Notes under the pieces: model-generated
What the model saw: only the letters and a program-made list of their open reading frames with translations
The model's database searches: none
Told to the model about the DNA's origin: nothing
Sequence record: OX638287
Direction: 5' to 3' (one strand)
From: Escherichia phage UP30
DNA length: 49,834 nt
Made by a program: the position numbers and the translations under genes
Shown: positions 9,048 to 25,764 of the stretch, one piece after another
Layout: every line of letters begins with the position of its first letter
Numbering within the stretch: the stretch's first letter is position 1

Positions 9048-9070
9048 ACCCGCTTCGGCGGGTTTTTTTA
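9048..9070 (+). terminator. intrinsic terminator at end of early block
   Basis: cccgc-ttcg-gcggg then T7. Confidence 0.7.
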
Positions 9071-9081
9071 TGCCTGCAATA

Positions 9082-9107
9082 TGGTAAAATAGCACTAAAT
9101 GTTAAAC
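9082..9107 (+). promoter_or_regulatory. terS promoter: extended -10 TGgTAAAAT directly followed by dyad box
   Basis: TGGTAAAAT 9082-9090; tagcactaaatgttaaac 9090-9107; ATG 9123. Confidence 0.45.
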
Positions 9108-11255: not shown

Positions 11256-11273
11256 TAAATGAGATATAATCAA

Positions 11274-11298
11274 GGCTGTCAATTGACGGCCTTTTTTA
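11274..11298 (+). terminator. terminator/attenuator between terL and portal
   Basis: ggctgtc-aatt-gacggcc then T6. Confidence 0.45.
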
Positions 11299-11309
11299 TT
11301 GGAGGAAAC

Positions 11310-12593
11310 ATGAAAATTGTTAAGCATGATGGATATAACGATATCTTTAACGGCGGTGCGGACGGTTCACCTAAGCCATTTTTTATGTCAGATGCATCAT
11401 ATCACGTAGGATCTTTCTACAATGACAATGCCACGGCAAAGCGTATTGTAGATGTGATTCCTGAAGAGATGGTGACGGCTGGGTTTAAAATATCAGGCGT
11501 TAAGGATGAGAAAGAATTCAAATCTCTGTGGGATAGTTACAAAATTGATCCTAGCTTGGTTGACGTTCTTTGCTGGGCGCGCCTATACGGTGGAGCGGCT
11601 ATTGTAGCGATCATTAATGACAACAGAATGCTAACCAGTCCAGTTAAGCCTGGAGCTAAACTTGAAGGTGTGCGTGTTTACGATAGGTTCGCAATTACAA
11701 TCGAAAAAAGAGTAACCAATGCGCGATCGCCTCGCTATGGTGAGCCTGAGATCTATAAGGTGTCTCCTGGTGACAATATTCAACCTTACTTAATCCACCA
11801 CACGAGAATTTTCATTACTGATGGTGAGAGAGTTACCCCTCAGATGCGGAAGCAGAATCAGGGGTGGGGCGCTTCAGTTTTGAATAAGTCACTGATTGAT
11901 GCAATCTGCGACTACGACTATTGCGAATCACTTGCGACTCAGATCCTGCGGCGTAAGCAACAGGCGGTATGGAAGGTCAAAGGTCTTGCCGAAATGTGCG
12001 ATGATGACGATGCTCAGTATGCGGCGCGTCTGCGACTTGCTCAGGTTGATGATAACTCAGGCGTAGGCCGCGCGATCGGTATCGATGCTGAGACGGAAGA
12101 ATACGATGTTCTAAACTCTGATATCAGCGGAGTACCTGAGTTCTTGTCAAGCAAGATGGATCGTATTGTTTCCCTTTCCGGGATTCATGAGATTATCATC
12201 AAAAATAAGAACGTAGGCGGCGTATCAGCGAGCCAAAACACAGCGCTTGAGACTTTCTATAAGTTGGTAGATCGTAAGCGTGAGGAAGATTATAGACCGC
12301 TTCTTGAGTTCTTGTTGCCGTTCATTGTTGACGAGGAAGAGTGGTCGATCGAGTTCGAGCCGTTGTCGGTCCCGAGCAAGAAAGAAGAATCCGAGATTAC
12401 GAAGAACAATGTTGAGTCTGTGACGAAAGCTATCACTGAGCAAATCATCGATCTGGAAGAGGCTCGCGATACGTTGCGCTCTATCGCTCCTGAGTTTAAA
12501 CTCAAGGACGGTAATAACATTAACATTCGCGAACCAGAAGAAACAACCGAGCCGGAACCGGGATTAGGGGAGAAGTTAGAAGATGAAAATTAA
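11310..12593 (+). CDS. portal protein
   Basis: 427 aa directly after TerL, acidic C-terminus; ATG 11310 after GGAGGAAACA (track ORF starts inside upstream hairpin). Confidence 0.75.
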   Translation: MKIVKHDGYNDIFNGGADGSPKPFFMSDASYHVGSFYNDNATAKRIVDVIPEEMVTAGFKISGVKDEKEFKSLWDSYKIDPSLVDVLCWARLYGGAAIVAIINDNRMLTSPVKPGAKLEGVRVYDRFAITIEKRVTNARSPRYGEPEIYKVSPGDNIQPYLIHHTRIFITDGERVTPQMRKQNQGWGASVLNKSLIDAICDYDYCESLATQILRRKQQAVWKVKGLAEMCDDDDAQYAARLRLAQVDDNSGVGRAIGIDAETEEYDVLNSDISGVPEFLSSKMDRIVSLSGIHEIIIKNKNVGGVSASQNTALETFYKLVDRKREEDYRPLLEFLLPFIVDEEEWSIEFEPLSVPSKKEESEITKNNVESVTKAITEQIIDLEEARDTLRSIAPEFKLKDGNNINIREPEETTEPEPGLGEKLEDEN

Positions 12594-13344
12594 TGGCGTT
12601 GCTACTCAGTGGCGCTATCCTGAAATGAGTGAGCGTGCAATGTCGCGCTCCCTACAGGATGTAGCAGCCAAACTAACTGAAAAAATGCGTAACGAATTAA
12701 AGCCGATGAAATTTGATGCTACCGACGAAGAGATAGATCAGGCAGAAAGGTCATTGCTTGATTACGTTGAATCGCTCATCGCGCCGATTATCGGATCTCT
12801 ATCATCCGTTGCGCTCACGATCTATAAATTCAACTCTAAGCAGTGGCTGCGCATCGCTCGCAATGCTGGAGGTAAGAAGAATCAAGCTGTTATGCTACTT
12901 GCCCTGATTGGTCCCACCGCTGCCGAAAGCTGGTACTCAGGACAATATAATCTGTGGCGATCGCAGGTGACTACTTCTATCAGGAAATTTGCTGCCAACA
13001 TGGTTACTGATTTCACTGATAAACTTCGTGCAGCATCCGGTCAGGGTAAAAGCAAGGATTTCGTGGCTGAACTGGTTAAGGAGCGATTTGGCATTTACCG
13101 AAATTGGGCCAAAAACAGAGCGTCGGGAATCGTCGGAACGTGGAACAGTAGACTGATGCGGCAACGCATAAAAGACGCTGGAGTATCTTGCTACTTCTGG
13201 CGCGGGGTGATGGATTTACGCGAACGTGAAAAACATGTAAGATGGGAAGGTAAGCGCATAGCGGTAGATTCTGATCATGTATTCCCTGGTGAAGAATACA
13301 ATTGCCGTTGTTGGGCTGTTCCAGACTTTTCTACAGGAGATTAA
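12583..13344 (+). CDS. head morphogenesis protein (Mu F / SPP1 gp7-like)
   Basis: Position after portal; C-terminal HVFPGEEYNCRCW motif. Confidence 0.65.
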   Translation: MKINGVATQWRYPEMSERAMSRSLQDVAAKLTEKMRNELKPMKFDATDEEIDQAERSLLDYVESLIAPIIGSLSSVALTIYKFNSKQWLRIARNAGGKKNQAVMLLALIGPTAAESWYSGQYNLWRSQVTTSIRKFAANMVTDFTDKLRAASGQGKSKDFVAELVKERFGIYRNWAKNRASGIVGTWNSRLMRQRIKDAGVSCYFWRGVMDLREREKHVRWEGKRIAVDSDHVFPGEEYNCRCWAVPDFSTGD

Positions 13345-13346
13345 AA

Positions 13347-14459
13347 ATGAAGGCAAAGCAAAGATTCGATTCGGTAAAAATCAAGGCGCATTTTGATGAT
13401 AATGGTTTTTTGGTTGACCGTCCCATCGTAGCGCGAATCGGTGCTCAGGTTTACAAAACGCCACACGGAGATCGCGTTGAGTTTCGTCCTGCGTCCGAAG
13501 TGTTCAAACAAGACTCATTGCAAAGTTTTGCAGGCAAGCCGATTACAGTCGGGCACGTAACGGTGACGCCAAAAAATGCTAAGGATGTTGTTGTCGGATC
13601 GTGTGCTGGTGCTGGTATTGCTTCAGGGGTTGGTGTTGAAGTTCCTTTGAGTATTTACAGTGAATACGCGATCGGTAAGGCAAAAGCGAAGGAGGCCGGG
13701 GAATTGTCAGTTGGCTACACGTCAGTTGATATTGATAAACCTGGTTGGGGTTCAAACGAAACTGGAGAATATATCTTCGAAGAGGATATGAAACAGGATG
13801 AAGCGCCGCCTGAAGGATGGGTGAAGTTCGACGCGGTACAGACCAATATTAAGGTCAATCATATCGCCCTGGTCTTCAAAGGTCGTGCGGGAATTGCTAA
13901 ATTAAACCTTGATGCCGAACAGGAATTTCCGTATGATAATAACGTTCAATCAACCAACGAGGACAAGCAAATGAAAAAAATTAAGATCGATTCAGTTGAT
14001 GTGGAAGTAACCGAAGACGTTGCGAACCATATCGAAAAGTTAACCGCACAGATCGCTACCATTCAGGGCAAAGCTGATGGTTTCGAAGCAGAACGCGACG
14101 CGCTCAAGGTCAAGGTTGACTCTCTACCGGAACTGGTAAAAGCAGAAGTGGAGAAGCAGAAAGCTGACGCAGCCGCACGCGCAGAAGTCACGGCAGTAGC
14201 AGAAACCGCAGGCGTTAAGCATGACGGCCTTGAAATCAAAGACGTTAAGGTGGCGGTTGTGAAAGCAATGCTGAACAAAGACGTTAGCGAAAAATCTGAT
14301 GCATACATCGACGCCATGTTTGATGTTGCTAAGGATTCTGATATTATGGCTATTCAGCGTAAAGCGGTAAAAGGCGACTCTATCGAAGACGGCAAGCCGG
14401 AAGAGAAAAACGACGCCGCGCCTGTTACGCCAAATTCACGTTTAAGTAAAGTAATGTAA
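13347..14459 (+). CDS. putative prohead protease / scaffold protein (370 aa)
   Basis: Position between head morphogenesis gene and capsid-region genes; Lys/Glu/Ala-rich coiled-coil-like C-terminus. Confidence 0.45.
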   Translation: MKAKQRFDSVKIKAHFDDNGFLVDRPIVARIGAQVYKTPHGDRVEFRPASEVFKQDSLQSFAGKPITVGHVTVTPKNAKDVVVGSCAGAGIASGVGVEVPLSIYSEYAIGKAKAKEAGELSVGYTSVDIDKPGWGSNETGEYIFEEDMKQDEAPPEGWVKFDAVQTNIKVNHIALVFKGRAGIAKLNLDAEQEFPYDNNVQSTNEDKQMKKIKIDSVDVEVTEDVANHIEKLTAQIATIQGKADGFEAERDALKVKVDSLPELVKAEVEKQKADAAARAEVTAVAETAGVKHDGLEIKDVKVAVVKAMLNKDVSEKSDAYIDAMFDVAKDSDIMAIQRKAVKGDSIEDGKPEEKNDAAPVTPNSRLSKVM

Positions 14460-14470
14460 GGAGAAAAATT

Positions 14471-14947
14471 ATGGCACAGATTAACGCATCTTATCAGCGC
14501 GACATGGCGATCGCCCTTCCGGGTATGGTTGCTGACACTTCCAAATACAACATCGACGGCGCTTGTGTCGTTAACGAAGGTGATGTTTTTGTTGGTGCTG
14601 CTGTTCAGGTTGTCCAAGCTCAGGCTGTTGATGGTCATAAACTGGTTAAGGCTATGGAAGCGTCTAAAGTACCGTACGGCGTAGCGATTCGTTCTCACTG
14701 GCAGACTGTCAACGCTCAAAACCAGATGGTTTATGAAGAAGGTGGCGCAATCAACGTAATGACCTCCGGGCGAGTCTGGATGCTTTCAAAATCAGAAGAA
14801 GCACCAACTTTCGGAACTGCTGTTAAGTTAGATGTTGATGGTCAGGAAAAATCTGATGGCACGATCGAAACTACCTGGACTTACGCTGGCGGCTGGACTA
14901 AATACAAAGACATTCAGCTTGTAGAAGTTCAGTTGCATCAACTGTAA
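14471..14947 (+). CDS. head protein, paralog A (158 aa), possible decoration protein
   Basis: Shares TSxYNIDGACV...PYGxAxRS...GRxWxL...EAP block with the next gene. Confidence 0.5.
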   Translation: MAQINASYQRDMAIALPGMVADTSKYNIDGACVVNEGDVFVGAAVQVVQAQAVDGHKLVKAMEASKVPYGVAIRSHWQTVNAQNQMVYEEGGAINVMTSGRVWMLSKSEEAPTFGTAVKLDVDGQEKSDGTIETTWTYAGGWTKYKDIQLVEVQLHQL

Positions 14948-15007
14948 TTAGCGTTTAATATGGGGACTATCCTTTTTGGATGGTCCTTTTTTTATGGAGA
15001 AATAATT

Positions 15008-15772
15008 ATGGCTTACGAAAATTTAATGTTGCGCCCGGCGTGTCCTGGAAATCTTTCCGATACTTCAACCTACAATATTGATGGTGCTTGCGTTGCGCAG
15101 GGTGATATTGAGTTCGGCTCGGCGGTACAGGTTATCGGGATCGTTGATGGTGTTAAAGTCGTTACGGCGCTTACTGATGGTGGAACTCCTTACGGTATAG
15201 CTTTCCGTTCCCAATATGAACACCTGAGCGGTAAAATCTTAGACGGCGAAGTGTGCAACGTAGTTTCTTACGGTCGAATGTGGACGCTTACTTCTCTTGA
15301 TGAGGCTCCCGGCTTATTCTCAAAGTTGCAATTTGGATCTGGTGGCGTTGTTACTGGTGGATCTGGTTCCGTAGGTTGGACCTTCGCGGGTGGATTTGTT
15401 AAGCATGAAGACGGCTACATCATTGAGGTTCAGGTGAAACAAAATGCTTTCATCGTCCCACCGCCGCCTCCAGTTGTTCTTGTTGAATCAGCTACGATCA
15501 CTACCGACAAGGAAAGTCCTCAGCCTAACAACGTTACGATTCAGTGCGTAGCTAATGTTCTTCCTGTGAACGCTGATGATAAAACTGGCAAGTGGTCAAT
15601 TGACGCCACCAACATTGCTACTGTGGATCCGGACTCAGGTTTGGTTACTCCTGTAGGTGGAGAAGTCGTCGGTAACTTCAATATCACATGGACGGCTAAC
15701 GACGCCAGCAAGACGAAGGCAACTATTGCCTATCGCGTAGAAGCGGCTCCAACTCCAGAAGGTGAGTCATAA
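15008..15772 (+). CDS. head protein, paralog B with C-terminal Ig-like (Big_2-type) domain
   Basis: N-terminal paralogy to 14471-14947; PPPPP linker then Ig-like domain; ATG 15008 after GGAGAAATAATT. Confidence 0.5.
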   Translation: MAYENLMLRPACPGNLSDTSTYNIDGACVAQGDIEFGSAVQVIGIVDGVKVVTALTDGGTPYGIAFRSQYEHLSGKILDGEVCNVVSYGRMWTLTSLDEAPGLFSKLQFGSGGVVTGGSGSVGWTFAGGFVKHEDGYIIEVQVKQNAFIVPPPPPVVLVESATITTDKESPQPNNVTIQCVANVLPVNADDKTGKWSIDATNIATVDPDSGLVTPVGGEVVGNFNITWTANDASKTKATIAYRVEAAPTPEGES

Positions 15773-15784
15773 CACAAAAATGCT

Positions 15785-15812
15785 TTGACGCTTTAACAAA
15801 AAGTGCTATTAT
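15785..15812 (+). promoter_or_regulatory. strong sigma70-type promoter of capsid gene (TTGACG-16-TGcTATTAT) with inverted box in spacer
   Basis: -35 15785-15790, -10 15807-15812; box ttaacaaaaagtgctatta 15793-15811. Confidence 0.55.
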
Positions 15813-15816
15813 TGAA

Positions 15817-15845
15817 GCCGTGAACATAATCACGGCTTTTTTATT
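15817..15845 (+). terminator. hairpin + U-run in capsid gene 5' leader
   Basis: gccgtga-acataa-tcacggc then T6. Confidence 0.45.
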
Positions 15846-15863
15846 AACTAAGGAGAAATAATT

Positions 15864-16823
15864 ATGGCTACTAAAAAATTTGATGAAGCAGACAAAAGCA
15901 ATGTCGAAATGTATCTGATCCAGGCTGGCGTAAAGCAGGATGCAGCAGCAACTATGGGTATCTGGACCGCTCAGGAACTACACCGCATCAAAAACCAGTC
16001 TTACGAAGAAGATTACCCTGTCGGCTCCGCGCTGCGAGTATTCCCGGTTACTACCGATCTTTCTCCGACTGACAAGACTTTCGAATACATGACCTTTGAT
16101 AAGGTTGGCACGGCTCAGATTATCGCGGACTACACCGACGACCTGCCGCTTGTTGATGCCCTGGGCACTTCTGAGTTCGGTAAAGTGTTCCGTTTGGGTA
16201 ACGCGTATCTGATCTCAATCGACGAAATCAAAGCGGGTCAGGCAACTGGTCGCCCACTGTCAACTCGTAAGGCAAGTGCATGTCAGTTAGCGCATGACCA
16301 ACTGGTTAACCGTCTGGTGTTCAAAGGTTCCGTGCCGCACAAGATCGTGTCCGTGTTCAATCATCCGAACATCACCAAAATTACCTCCGGTAAGTGGATG
16401 GATGGCGCAACTCAGAAACCGGAAACAGCAGAAGCTGAATTGACTCAGGCAATCGAAACCATCGAGACGATTACTCGCGGTCAGCATCGTGCAACCAACA
16501 TTCTGATCCCGCCGTCCATGCGTAAGGTATTGGCTATTCGTATGCCTGAGACTACCATGTCTTATCTGGACTACTTCAAGTCTCAGAATGCTGGTATCGA
16601 GATCGACTCTATCGCAGAGCTTGAAGATATCGACGGCGCGGGTACTAAAGGTGTGCTGGTTTACGAAAAGAATCCGATGAACATGTCCATCGAGATCCCG
16701 GAAGCATTCAACATGCTGCCAGCACAGCCGAAAGACTTGCACTTTAAAGTGCCTTGCACCTCTAAGTGTACTGGTCTTACAATTTATCGCCCGATGACTA
16801 TTGTCTTAATCACTGGCGTGTAA
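15864..16823 (+). CDS. major capsid protein (putative)
   Basis: 319 aa, strong promoter upstream and strong terminator downstream, position in head module. Confidence 0.65.
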   Translation: MATKKFDEADKSNVEMYLIQAGVKQDAAATMGIWTAQELHRIKNQSYEEDYPVGSALRVFPVTTDLSPTDKTFEYMTFDKVGTAQIIADYTDDLPLVDALGTSEFGKVFRLGNAYLISIDEIKAGQATGRPLSTRKASACQLAHDQLVNRLVFKGSVPHKIVSVFNHPNITKITSGKWMDGATQKPETAEAELTQAIETIETITRGQHRATNILIPPSMRKVLAIRMPETTMSYLDYFKSQNAGIEIDSIAELEDIDGAGTKGVLVYEKNPMNMSIEIPEAFNMLPAQPKDLHFKVPCTSKCTGLTIYRPMTIVLITGV

Positions 16824-16830
16824 TATCATA

Positions 16831-16861
16831 GGGGCTAACTTAGTTAGTCCCTTTTTTTTTA
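16831..16861 (+). terminator. strong intrinsic terminator after capsid gene
   Basis: 8-bp stem, then T9. Confidence 0.75.
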
Positions 16862-16875
16862 TTGGAGAAATCAAA

Positions 16876-17163
16876 ATGGCTAAAGAAAAAACTGTTGTTA
16901 TCGTAAACGTTGGTGTAGCTCTTCAAATGTTCCGTCTTGAAGATGGTTCATTTGCTAAAGTTCTTCCAGATGAAGAGGTCACGCTTCCGGCGTCCGTTCT
17001 TGATTTACCTGGCCTGCGTTGCTTAATTGCTCGCGAAGAAATCGAAGTTAAAGACGATAGTGCAACCAACCGCAAAATCCGCGATGAAATGGCAAAGATC
17101 ACGAAGCCAGATCCGTGGGATAGCAAAAGCGTTAAAGAGCTTGAGGACGGCGGCGAATATTAA
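16876..17163 (+). CDS. hypothetical structural protein (95 aa)
   Basis: ORF bracketed by two terminators within the head module. Confidence 0.5.
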   Translation: MAKEKTVVIVNVGVALQMFRLEDGSFAKVLPDEEVTLPASVLDLPGLRCLIAREEIEVKDDSATNRKIRDEMAKITKPDPWDSKSVKELEDGGEY

Positions 17164-18815: not shown

Positions 18816-19484
18816 ATGCACTTACCAAATGGCGCACAAATTTTCGTAGAAACCTCTCGCGGCGATGAGATTGATGCTTCTGCGGTTAGCAATGCTGAGC
18901 GACCCGTTGCAACGGTAGCATCTAAGGGTGATTTAGCTAAAGGTGATTACGTTATTGTAACTCAGTCAACTTGGGCTAAAATTGTTAGCCGAGTCCTTAT
19001 TGTGACCGACGCTCAAGAAACAGAAATTACACTGGCTGGAATTGACACATCTGATACTCTTGTTTTCCCGTCTGGCGGCACAATGAGTTTTGCAAAAATT
19101 ACTGGTTGGACTGAGATTCCATGCGTGCAGGAGATTGGTCAGGACGGTGGCGAGCAGCAGTATTACACGTATCAGTGTTTGTCTGACGACAAAGAGCAGC
19201 AGATCCCGACTTTTAAATCTGCGATCTCGCTAACTTATACTTTTGCTCACGAATTTGATAACCCGATCTACCCGATTCTGCGCAAGCTGGATGCATCTGG
19301 TCAGGTAACTGCGGTTCGAATGTATGTACCTAAAGCAAGTGAGATGCGTATGTGGGCTGGCATCTTATCGTTTAACGACATTCCATCCACGCAGGTTAAC
19401 GAGATGGAAACGGTTGAATTATCCGTATCCCTGAAAGGTGACTTTACTTTCGTATCTTCCACTCTAGCATCGCCTGGTGCTTAA
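18816..19484 (+). CDS. major tail protein (putative)
   Basis: ATG 18816 after AAAGGAG; terminator downstream; precedes G/GT chaperone. Confidence 0.55.
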   Translation: MHLPNGAQIFVETSRGDEIDASAVSNAERPVATVASKGDLAKGDYVIVTQSTWAKIVSRVLIVTDAQETEITLAGIDTSDTLVFPSGGTMSFAKITGWTEIPCVQEIGQDGGEQQYYTYQCLSDDKEQQIPTFKSAISLTYTFAHEFDNPIYPILRKLDASGQVTAVRMYVPKASEMRMWAGILSFNDIPSTQVNEMETVELSVSLKGDFTFVSSTLASPGA

Positions 19485-19525: not shown

Positions 19526-19560
19526 TAAAATCATCGTATCAACTTTATTCACTTCGTTTT

Positions 19561-19597: not shown

Positions 19598-19915
19598 ATG
19601 GCTAAATTCAATTTTGTGCTGGGCCAACTTCCAGACTTCAAACTTCCGGTAACTTTCACCATGCCAAACGGTGAAGATGCGACGATTATTTTTACCGTTC
19701 GCCACCTTTCCAGCAAAGAAGTACAGGATATGTACGCAAAACAGGGTGAAATGAATGATAGCGATTTCATCACTAAGATCGCGTCAGGCTGGAACGTTGA
19801 AGAAGAATTTAACGAAGATAACGCACGCAAACTGGTACAGTATTACCCATCCGCAGCGTACAATCTTACAGCCACTTACATTAAGGCTCTTGCCGGACAC
19901 CGCGCAAAAAACTAA
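19598..19915 (+). CDS. tail assembly chaperone (lambda gpG-like)
   Basis: Small acidic protein before tape measure; ends at slippery A_AAA_AAC. Confidence 0.65.
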   Translation: MAKFNFVLGQLPDFKLPVTFTMPNGEDATIIFTVRHLSSKEVQDMYAKQGEMNDSDFITKIASGWNVEEEFNEDNARKLVQYYPSAAYNLTATYIKALAGHRAKN

Positions 19916-23516: not shown

Positions 23517-23538
23517 CCCGCCTTGCGCGGGTTTTTTT
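23516..23538 (+). terminator. intrinsic terminator
   Basis: cccgc-cttgc-gcggg then T7; same stem as at 25696. Confidence 0.65.
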
Positions 23539-23579
23539 GTGGCTGTAGAATGGTATCAACTAAACGAGAGGAAAAAGCA

Positions 23580-25695: not shown

Positions 25696-25718
25696 CCCGC
25701 CTTGCGCGGGTTTTTTTT
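25696..25718 (+). terminator. intrinsic terminator
   Basis: cccgc-cttgc-gcggg then T8. Confidence 0.65.
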
Positions 25719-25722
25719 CGCC

Positions 25723-25764
25723 TGTATAATGGGTTCACCGATAAATAGCACAAAAAGGTAAACA
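25723..25764 (+). promoter_or_regulatory. J promoter: TGTATAAT then dyad box abutting RBS
   Basis: -10 TATAAT 25725-25730; tagcacaaaaaggtaaac 25746-25764; ATG 25767. Confidence 0.45.

Follow-up and report, generated by a model that had tools for sequence, protein, structure and literature searches.

Two tandem genes upstream of the capsid gene of the T1-like phage UP30 probably encode the two capsid cement proteins of T1, the second with an Ig-like domain

Just upstream of its major capsid gene, Escherichia phage UP30 carries two similar genes in tandem, which raises the questions of what they encode and why there are two of them. The window analysed here, 49,834 bases long, is an essentially complete genome of a T1-like siphophage (Tunavirus, Drexlerviridae); its first 25 kb share approximately 89% identity with several Tunavirus genomes across 97-98% of those 25 kb, and in the region from 14300 to 16000 the identity is 96.5% with Escherichia phage vB_EcoS_SA32RD and 88.8% with phage T1. 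Gene order is that of T1: the portal gene (11259-12593), a gene for a Mu-F-like head morphogenesis protein (12583-13344), the head maturation protease gene (T1 gp50 equivalent; 13347-14459, plus strand; Pfam DUF2213; PHROG 530, E 7e-110), the two genes in question, and the major capsid gene (T1 gp47 equivalent; 15864-16823, plus strand; Pfam PF09950 Major_capside, E 3e-62; PHROG 264), whose product is 97.2% identical to T1 gp47. We infer that the protease starts at the ATG at 13347, as this gives a predicted coding sequence of 1113 nt, equal to that of T1. The gene pair is thus flanked by the protease gene on one side and the capsid gene on the other, as are the cement genes of T1. Scans for tRNAs and Rfam families across the whole window gave no matches. 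Directly after the capsid gene lies a gene for a 95-aa DUF7444 / PHROG 2716 protein (T1 gp46 equivalent; 16876-17163) that keeps this position among the T1-like phages sampled, and this protein does not appear in the list of modelled T1 virion proteins (PMC11945409).

The first gene (gene 1; 14471-14947, plus strand) encodes 158 aa and the second (gene 2; 15008-15772, plus strand) encodes 254 aa. Read from the sequence, a GGAG Shine-Dalgarno motif precedes each of them, at 14460-14463 (plus strand; 7 nt before the ATG at 14471) and at 14996-14999 (plus strand; 8 nt before 15008). The two are clear paralogues, with a similarity far beyond chance: BLASTP aligned their products over 143 aa with 38% identity and 61% positives (E 2e-29), and the Smith-Waterman score was 250, compared to 30.4 +/- 5.2 for 300 shuffles (z = 42). 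The original prediction of two tandem paralogous genes thus stands up to formal pairwise alignment, and the four motifs on which it was based are present in both products (DTSKYNIDGACV/DTSTYNIDGACV, PYGVAIRS/PYGIAFRS, GRVWML/GRMWTL, and EAP). It had placed these motifs in a conserved N-terminal block, a restriction that does not hold, as the likeness spans the entire domain of approximately 145 aa. In gene 2, this domain covers aa 1-146 (15008-15445, plus strand; delimited using BLASTP, Pfam, and PDB matches), and it is followed by the anticipated linker, a run of five prolines at aa 151-155 (15458-15472, plus strand, read from the sequence). The C-terminal Ig-like domain that had been proposed is also recovered, as a match to Pfam PF02368 Big_2 above the gathering cut-off (E 2e-7, 31.3 bits, cut-off 22.8). 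The core of this match runs from aa 175 to 239 (nt 15530-15724) and aligns with positions 17-78 of the 79 in the profile, and the domain as a whole extends over approximately aa 158-247 (15479-15748, plus strand), with outer boundaries that are an estimate. The same part of the protein matches the Ig-domain families PHROG 215, 1280, and 341. A single-sequence AlphaFold2 model of the gene 2 product, built with no MSA, had a mean pLDDT of 34.4, with values below 50 throughout, and a pTM of 0.19, too low for the model to be of use.

Both products belong to known cement-protein families. Against Pfam PF22758 Phage_cement, which bears the title “Structural cement protein (E217 gp24/Pam3 gp6)”, the gene 1 product scored 104.8 bits and the gene 2 product 56.7 bits (cut-off 27), and both were also above the gathering threshold of PF23982 (XM1 gp53 minor capsid protein). 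NCBIfam yielded no family for either product. Searches against the PDB returned near-identical chains from T1-like virions. Gene 1 matched, over residues 1-158 of 158 (E 1.2e-96), a 158-residue chain present in 9KMG, 9KMH, and 9KZJ under the name “Decoration protein | cement protein II”, and the same search gave a distant match to a chain named “Cement” in 8HDT (E 4e-4). Gene 2 matched 9KZJ_H, a 255-residue “BIG2 domain-containing protein”, over residues 1-252 of 254 (E 2e-157), and “Decoration protein gp29” of 9KMH (E 2e-154). The gene 1 product is 93.0% identical to T1 gp49, and that of gene 2 resembles T1 gp48 to almost the same degree in its cement domain (93.8%) and its C-terminal part (92.8%). 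The paper behind entry 9KZJ, which describes the head of phage T1 (Chen et al. 2025, Viruses 17:351; PMC11945409), terms gp49 and gp48 cement proteins; in the curated T1 record AY216660 they are named “capsid decoration protein” and “IgG-domain-containing decoration protein”. Putting the probability at roughly 0.93, we believe from these similarities that the products of genes 1 and 2 are the two cement proteins on the capsid of this T1-like siphophage, orthologues of T1 gp49 and gp48, respectively. We regard their identity as settled because near-identical structures have already been solved. The suggestion that these genes just before the capsid gene encode decoration or cement proteins is therefore borne out, and orthologues of both proteins have been modelled in T1-like virions (9KZJ, 9KMG, and 9KMH). 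The finding itself is an ordinary one, as the pair is already known in the form of orthologues of a structurally solved system.

Compared to gp49 and gp48 of T1, the UP30 pair has the same gene order, intergenic terminator, promoter, and lengths (158 aa for gene 1; 254 versus 255 aa for gene 2), and the only differences are point substitutions and the linker, which has five prolines in UP30 and six in both T1 and SA32RD. The chains in 9KMG and 9KMH (“Decoration protein” and “Decoration protein gp29”; E 1e-96 and 2e-154) represent the same two-protein system from a different Tunavirus isolate. Both entries probably come from FCWL1, a T1-like phage (Cai et al. 2025, Structure 33:663). The KanT1 paper, which cites the FCWL1 study, contains nothing on cement proteins. 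More distant relatives by family are E217 gp24 and Pam3 gp6 (PF22758) and XM1 gp53 (PF23982), given that both UP30 products pass both thresholds. No sequence similarity to lambda gpD was detected in the searches made here. Phage lambda has a single homotrimeric decoration protein. Shigella phage Sf11 also has a single one, a homotrimeric beta-tulip protein (Sf11 paper). Lambda gpD, TW1 gp56, P74-26 gp87, and Sf11 gp40 share with the T1-like proteins the fold class and the binding of trimers at threefold positions (T1 and Sf11 papers), but the T1-like pair differs from lambda gpD, TW1 gp56, and Sf11 gp40 in using two paralogues.

What the two proteins do can be read from the published T1 head, and the structural statements made here derive from such orthologues, 93-99% identical, rather than from UP30 particles. 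The T1 head has a T=7 shell of the HK97 fold with 415 copies of the capsid protein gp47, and cement trimers sit outside this shell at all 140 threefold and quasi-threefold positions (PMC11945409). Eighty of these trimers consist of gp49 alone and the other 60 are heterotrimers in which one gp48 joins two gp49 subunits, giving 360 copies of gp49 to 60 of gp48, a ratio of 6:1 (PMC11945409). Both proteins have a beta-tulip fold, as do lambda gpD and TW1 gp56, and they differ in their attachment: the N-terminus of gp49 enters the shell and touches the A-domains of two capsid subunits, whereas gp48 is attached to the outer surface only, its N-terminus included (PMC11945409). By analogy, the UP30 major capsid protein is the expected binding partner of both of its cement proteins. 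We infer from the published counts, and not from coordinates, that the heterotrimers occupy the 60 quasi-threefold sites adjacent to the pentons. On a T=7 lattice, the 140 trimer sites fall into orbits of 20, 60, and 60, which give each hexon one, two, and three sites, and only the penton-adjacent orbit gives two sites per hexon. According to the legend of Figure 2A of the T1 paper, each hexon has two heterotrimers and four homotrimers (PMC11945409), and two per hexon fits only that orbit. With five gp29 chains, 9KMH is consistent with a ring round a fivefold vertex. A heterotrimer with one gp48 and two gp49 would also match the surroundings of a penton-adjacent site, where one penton meets two hexons.

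The cement family is found in 840 phage records at 1146 places, so approximately 300 genomes carry two copies. Among the phages sampled, Tunavirus, Hanrivervirus, Warwickvirus, and the K50 group have the pair, and Webervirus (phage Jurek) has a single copy. Five gene pairs from four Drexlerviridae lineages were aligned and placed in a neighbour-joining tree. All five sampled gene-2 proteins share two deletions, one of four residues at the N-terminus and one of two residues in a loop; the gene-2 copies group together with 75% bootstrap, the gene-1 clade is weakly supported, and gene-2 branches are longer than gene-1 branches. The shared indels and the gene-2 clade favour a single duplication, apparently followed by faster evolution of gene 2. 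Recurrent independent duplication was rejected on the same tree, with its 75% bootstrap for the gene-2 clade, and on the shared indels. The shorter N-terminus of the sampled gene-2 proteins would go with the surface-only attachment described for gp48.

The amount of gene 2 product may be set in the 60-nt intergenic region (14948-15007), which folds at -17.2 kcal/mol (z = -3.2). A terminator scan found here, on the plus strand at 14962-14994, a hairpin of terminator type (stem of 11 bp, loop of 5 nt) followed by a U-run, and the T1 and SA32RD records annotate a rho-independent terminator at the corresponding position. A hairpin with a U-run occupies this position in vojen, SECphi27, and K50 as well, with unrelated stem sequences; position and structure are thus conserved across genera, while the stem sequence is not. 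We consider this hairpin to be probably a partial terminator. The simplest reading of such a putative terminator is that it leaks, and leakage between the two genes would lower the expression of gene 2 towards the 360:60 observed in T1, to which a slightly weaker ribosome-binding site of gene 2 would perhaps add. Alternatively, the 6:1 ratio could be set at translation or at assembly. Taken together, these features allow a tentative proposal, which we hold at somewhat less than even odds: the locus would be a module in which a leaky terminator doses a fast-evolving paralogue for the penton sites at one-sixth of the main cement protein, the shortened N-terminus fits that paralogue to the local geometry, and the Ig domain is optional, having been lost in Hanrivervirus or gained elsewhere. 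The T1 structure paper makes no mention of a reading of this kind (PMC11945409).

The Ig-like domain itself had been predicted to lie at the surface of the particle, and the T1 structure agrees: the C-terminal 100 residues of gp48 protrude outward as weak, flexible density and were modelled using AlphaFold3 (PMC11945409). The proline linker would hold 60 Big_2 domains per head off the surface, where they would probably give weak, reversible adhesion to glycans of the cell or of environmental surfaces, although this is the least certain step of the proposed mechanism. T4 Hoc, T5 pb10, and phi-crAss001 offer an analogy, as they too have solvent-exposed, capsid-tethered Ig-like domains that have been proposed to aid adhesion. 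For T4 this is the Hoc-mucin model. The capsid-binding modules of these proteins are not known to be related to the cement pair, and Hoc and pb10 sit at hexamer centres rather than at penton-adjacent trimer sites. The comparison with T5 and crAss001 was drawn by the T1 authors, who suggested that the Ig domain of gp48 may help adsorption (PMC11945409). The carbohydrate binding envisaged for this domain in the original prediction is a hypothesis.

In Hanrivervirus phage vojen, the gene 2 product is 144 aa long and the Ig domain is absent. As vojen keeps the second paralogue without this domain, adhesion would not be the core role of gene 2; for the same reason, what is conserved in the second paralogue is probably a geometric role, to which the Ig domain is an optional addition. 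A stronger version of this argument, which we consider rather unlikely in full, holds that the second paralogue exists for geometry, as a cement subunit specific to the penton sites, and that the Ig domain is a dispensable passenger, mobile among phage structural proteins. Apart from vojen, it can draw on the shortened N-terminus, which the sampled gene-2 proteins have in common with or without an Ig part, on the agreement between the 60 published heterotrimers and the size of the penton-adjacent orbit, and on the matches of the Ig part to Ig domains in structural proteins, those of the tail tube among them, including a weak PDB match to the Ig domain of the tail tube protein 8HQZ. Against a mere passenger, the Ig part is present in the sampled members of Tunavirus, Warwickvirus, and the Klebsiella K50 group; the orthologues in T1 and SECphi27 (Warwickvirus) pass the Big_2 threshold, but in K50 the part is divergent, with no Pfam match, and is linked to the others only by a tblastn match of 35% identity. 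Within Tunavirus, moreover, conservation of the Ig part is close to that of the cement domain, which suggests that the Ig part is under selection. This argument is largely compatible with our preferred explanation of a dosed, penton-site cement paralogue that carries an optional Ig domain, and the two differ in emphasis. As for the wider meaning of the domain, T1-like phages are notoriously persistent laboratory contaminants, and an exposed Ig domain may bear on how they stick to surfaces or hosts. With 60 copies per head on a proline tether, it might also serve as a site for display or engineering.

The hairpin also bears on where gene 2 begins. The longest open reading frame at this place starts at an in-frame ATG at 14960 and would give a 270-aa product with a 16-residue N-terminal extension, but we consider this start very improbable: it has no preceding Shine-Dalgarno sequence, and the 48-nt extension overlaps the terminator hairpin (14962-14988). 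Furthermore, the intergenic region of T1 is one base longer, so the extension is out of frame there, and both the T1 annotation and the PDB chains begin with MAYENL. The true start is almost certainly 15008, where the GGAG lies 8 nt upstream in a context like that of gene 1 and the capsid gene. The start context of gene 2, TATGGAGAAATAATTATGGCT, recurs at the capsid gene as part of a repeat family (D6). In a near-identical form, TA(T/A)GGAGAAATAATTATGGCT, this translation-start context is found at gene 2, the capsid gene, and the DUF7444 gene, with copies at 14993-15024, 15849-15880, and 16861-16892.

Public labels suggest a different identity for the pair, in which gene 2 encodes a scaffolding or “capsid and scaffold” protein that leaves the particle and gene 1 an unrelated hypothetical protein or “zonula occludens toxin”; this has next to no likelihood, as it is based on database labels only (“scaffolding protein” on the SECphi27 homologue of gene 2, “putative zonula occludens toxin” on the vojen homologue of gene 1, and, in several T1-like records, “capsid and scaffold protein” for one gene of the region), while both proteins are modelled in mature T1-like virions by cryo-EM, the Pfam matches are confined to Phage_cement, XM1_gp53, and Big_2 and include neither a Zot nor a scaffold family, and a protease with a coiled-coil C-terminal half lies upstream of gene 1 (13347-14459). 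The scaffold and Zot annotations are already refuted by the cryo-EM models. Labels of cement genes in public records are often wrong or empty, with “HtjA” and “hypothetical protein” in use alongside “scaffolding protein” and “putative zonula occludens toxin”. The solved structures permit these genes to be renamed as those of a major cement protein and a minor, Ig-bearing cement protein, and beyond correct annotation the significance of the pair is small.

Downstream of gene 2, the gap before the capsid gene contains further putative signals. A promoter scan found a promoter-like site at 15785-15812 (plus strand; TTGACG-16-TATTAT with a TG extension, 10/12 matches) where the T1 and SA32RD records also annotate a promoter, and similar sequences were read by eye in the same gap in vojen, SECphi27, and K50. 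Right after it, at 15814-15845 (plus strand), the terminator scan found a second terminator-like hairpin with a U-run (folding z = -3.1), which is annotated as a terminator in T1 and SA32RD. A transcript from this promoter would start within the 5' arm of the hairpin and would consequently be without the full stem, so it could escape a terminator that stops transcripts arriving from upstream.

The promoter-like site also contains, inverted, a copy of a 16-nt motif, AGCACNWWTTGYTAAA (15792-15807, minus strand), that is widespread in this genome. With one mismatch allowed, the window holds 24 copies of it, compared to 0.05 expected by chance. On the plus strand they are at 788, 1527, 2581, 3142, 3868, 5442, 5962, 7257, 9091, 35043, 36583, 39092, 39483, 40115, 40447, and 42103, and on the minus strand at 15792, 19559, 45731, 46231, 46748, 47864, 48281, and 49415. 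Its direct-repeat copies lie in gaps between ORFs, as do most of the others. In the early regions the motif appears to be oriented as the flanking genes are, and the two late-region copies, at 15792 before the capsid gene and at 19559 in the gap between an ORF that ends at 19484 and one that starts at 19598, are inverted relative to the genes. In many copies a TATAGT box follows after approximately 22 nt, and an inverted repeat of variable sequence (e.g., GGGATAAC..GTTATCCC) spans this box. The first 4.5 kb of the curated T1 record has no annotated promoter. The motif could serve to bind a regulator, or it could be part of an unusual kind of promoter. A separate module (D5) occurs in three copies, at 9048-9089, 23517-23558, and 25696-25737, and consists of a GC-rich hairpin (CCCGCCTTGCGCGGG), a T-run, and a -10-like box (TAGAATGG or TATAATGG); these copies look like combined terminator-promoter units in the late region.
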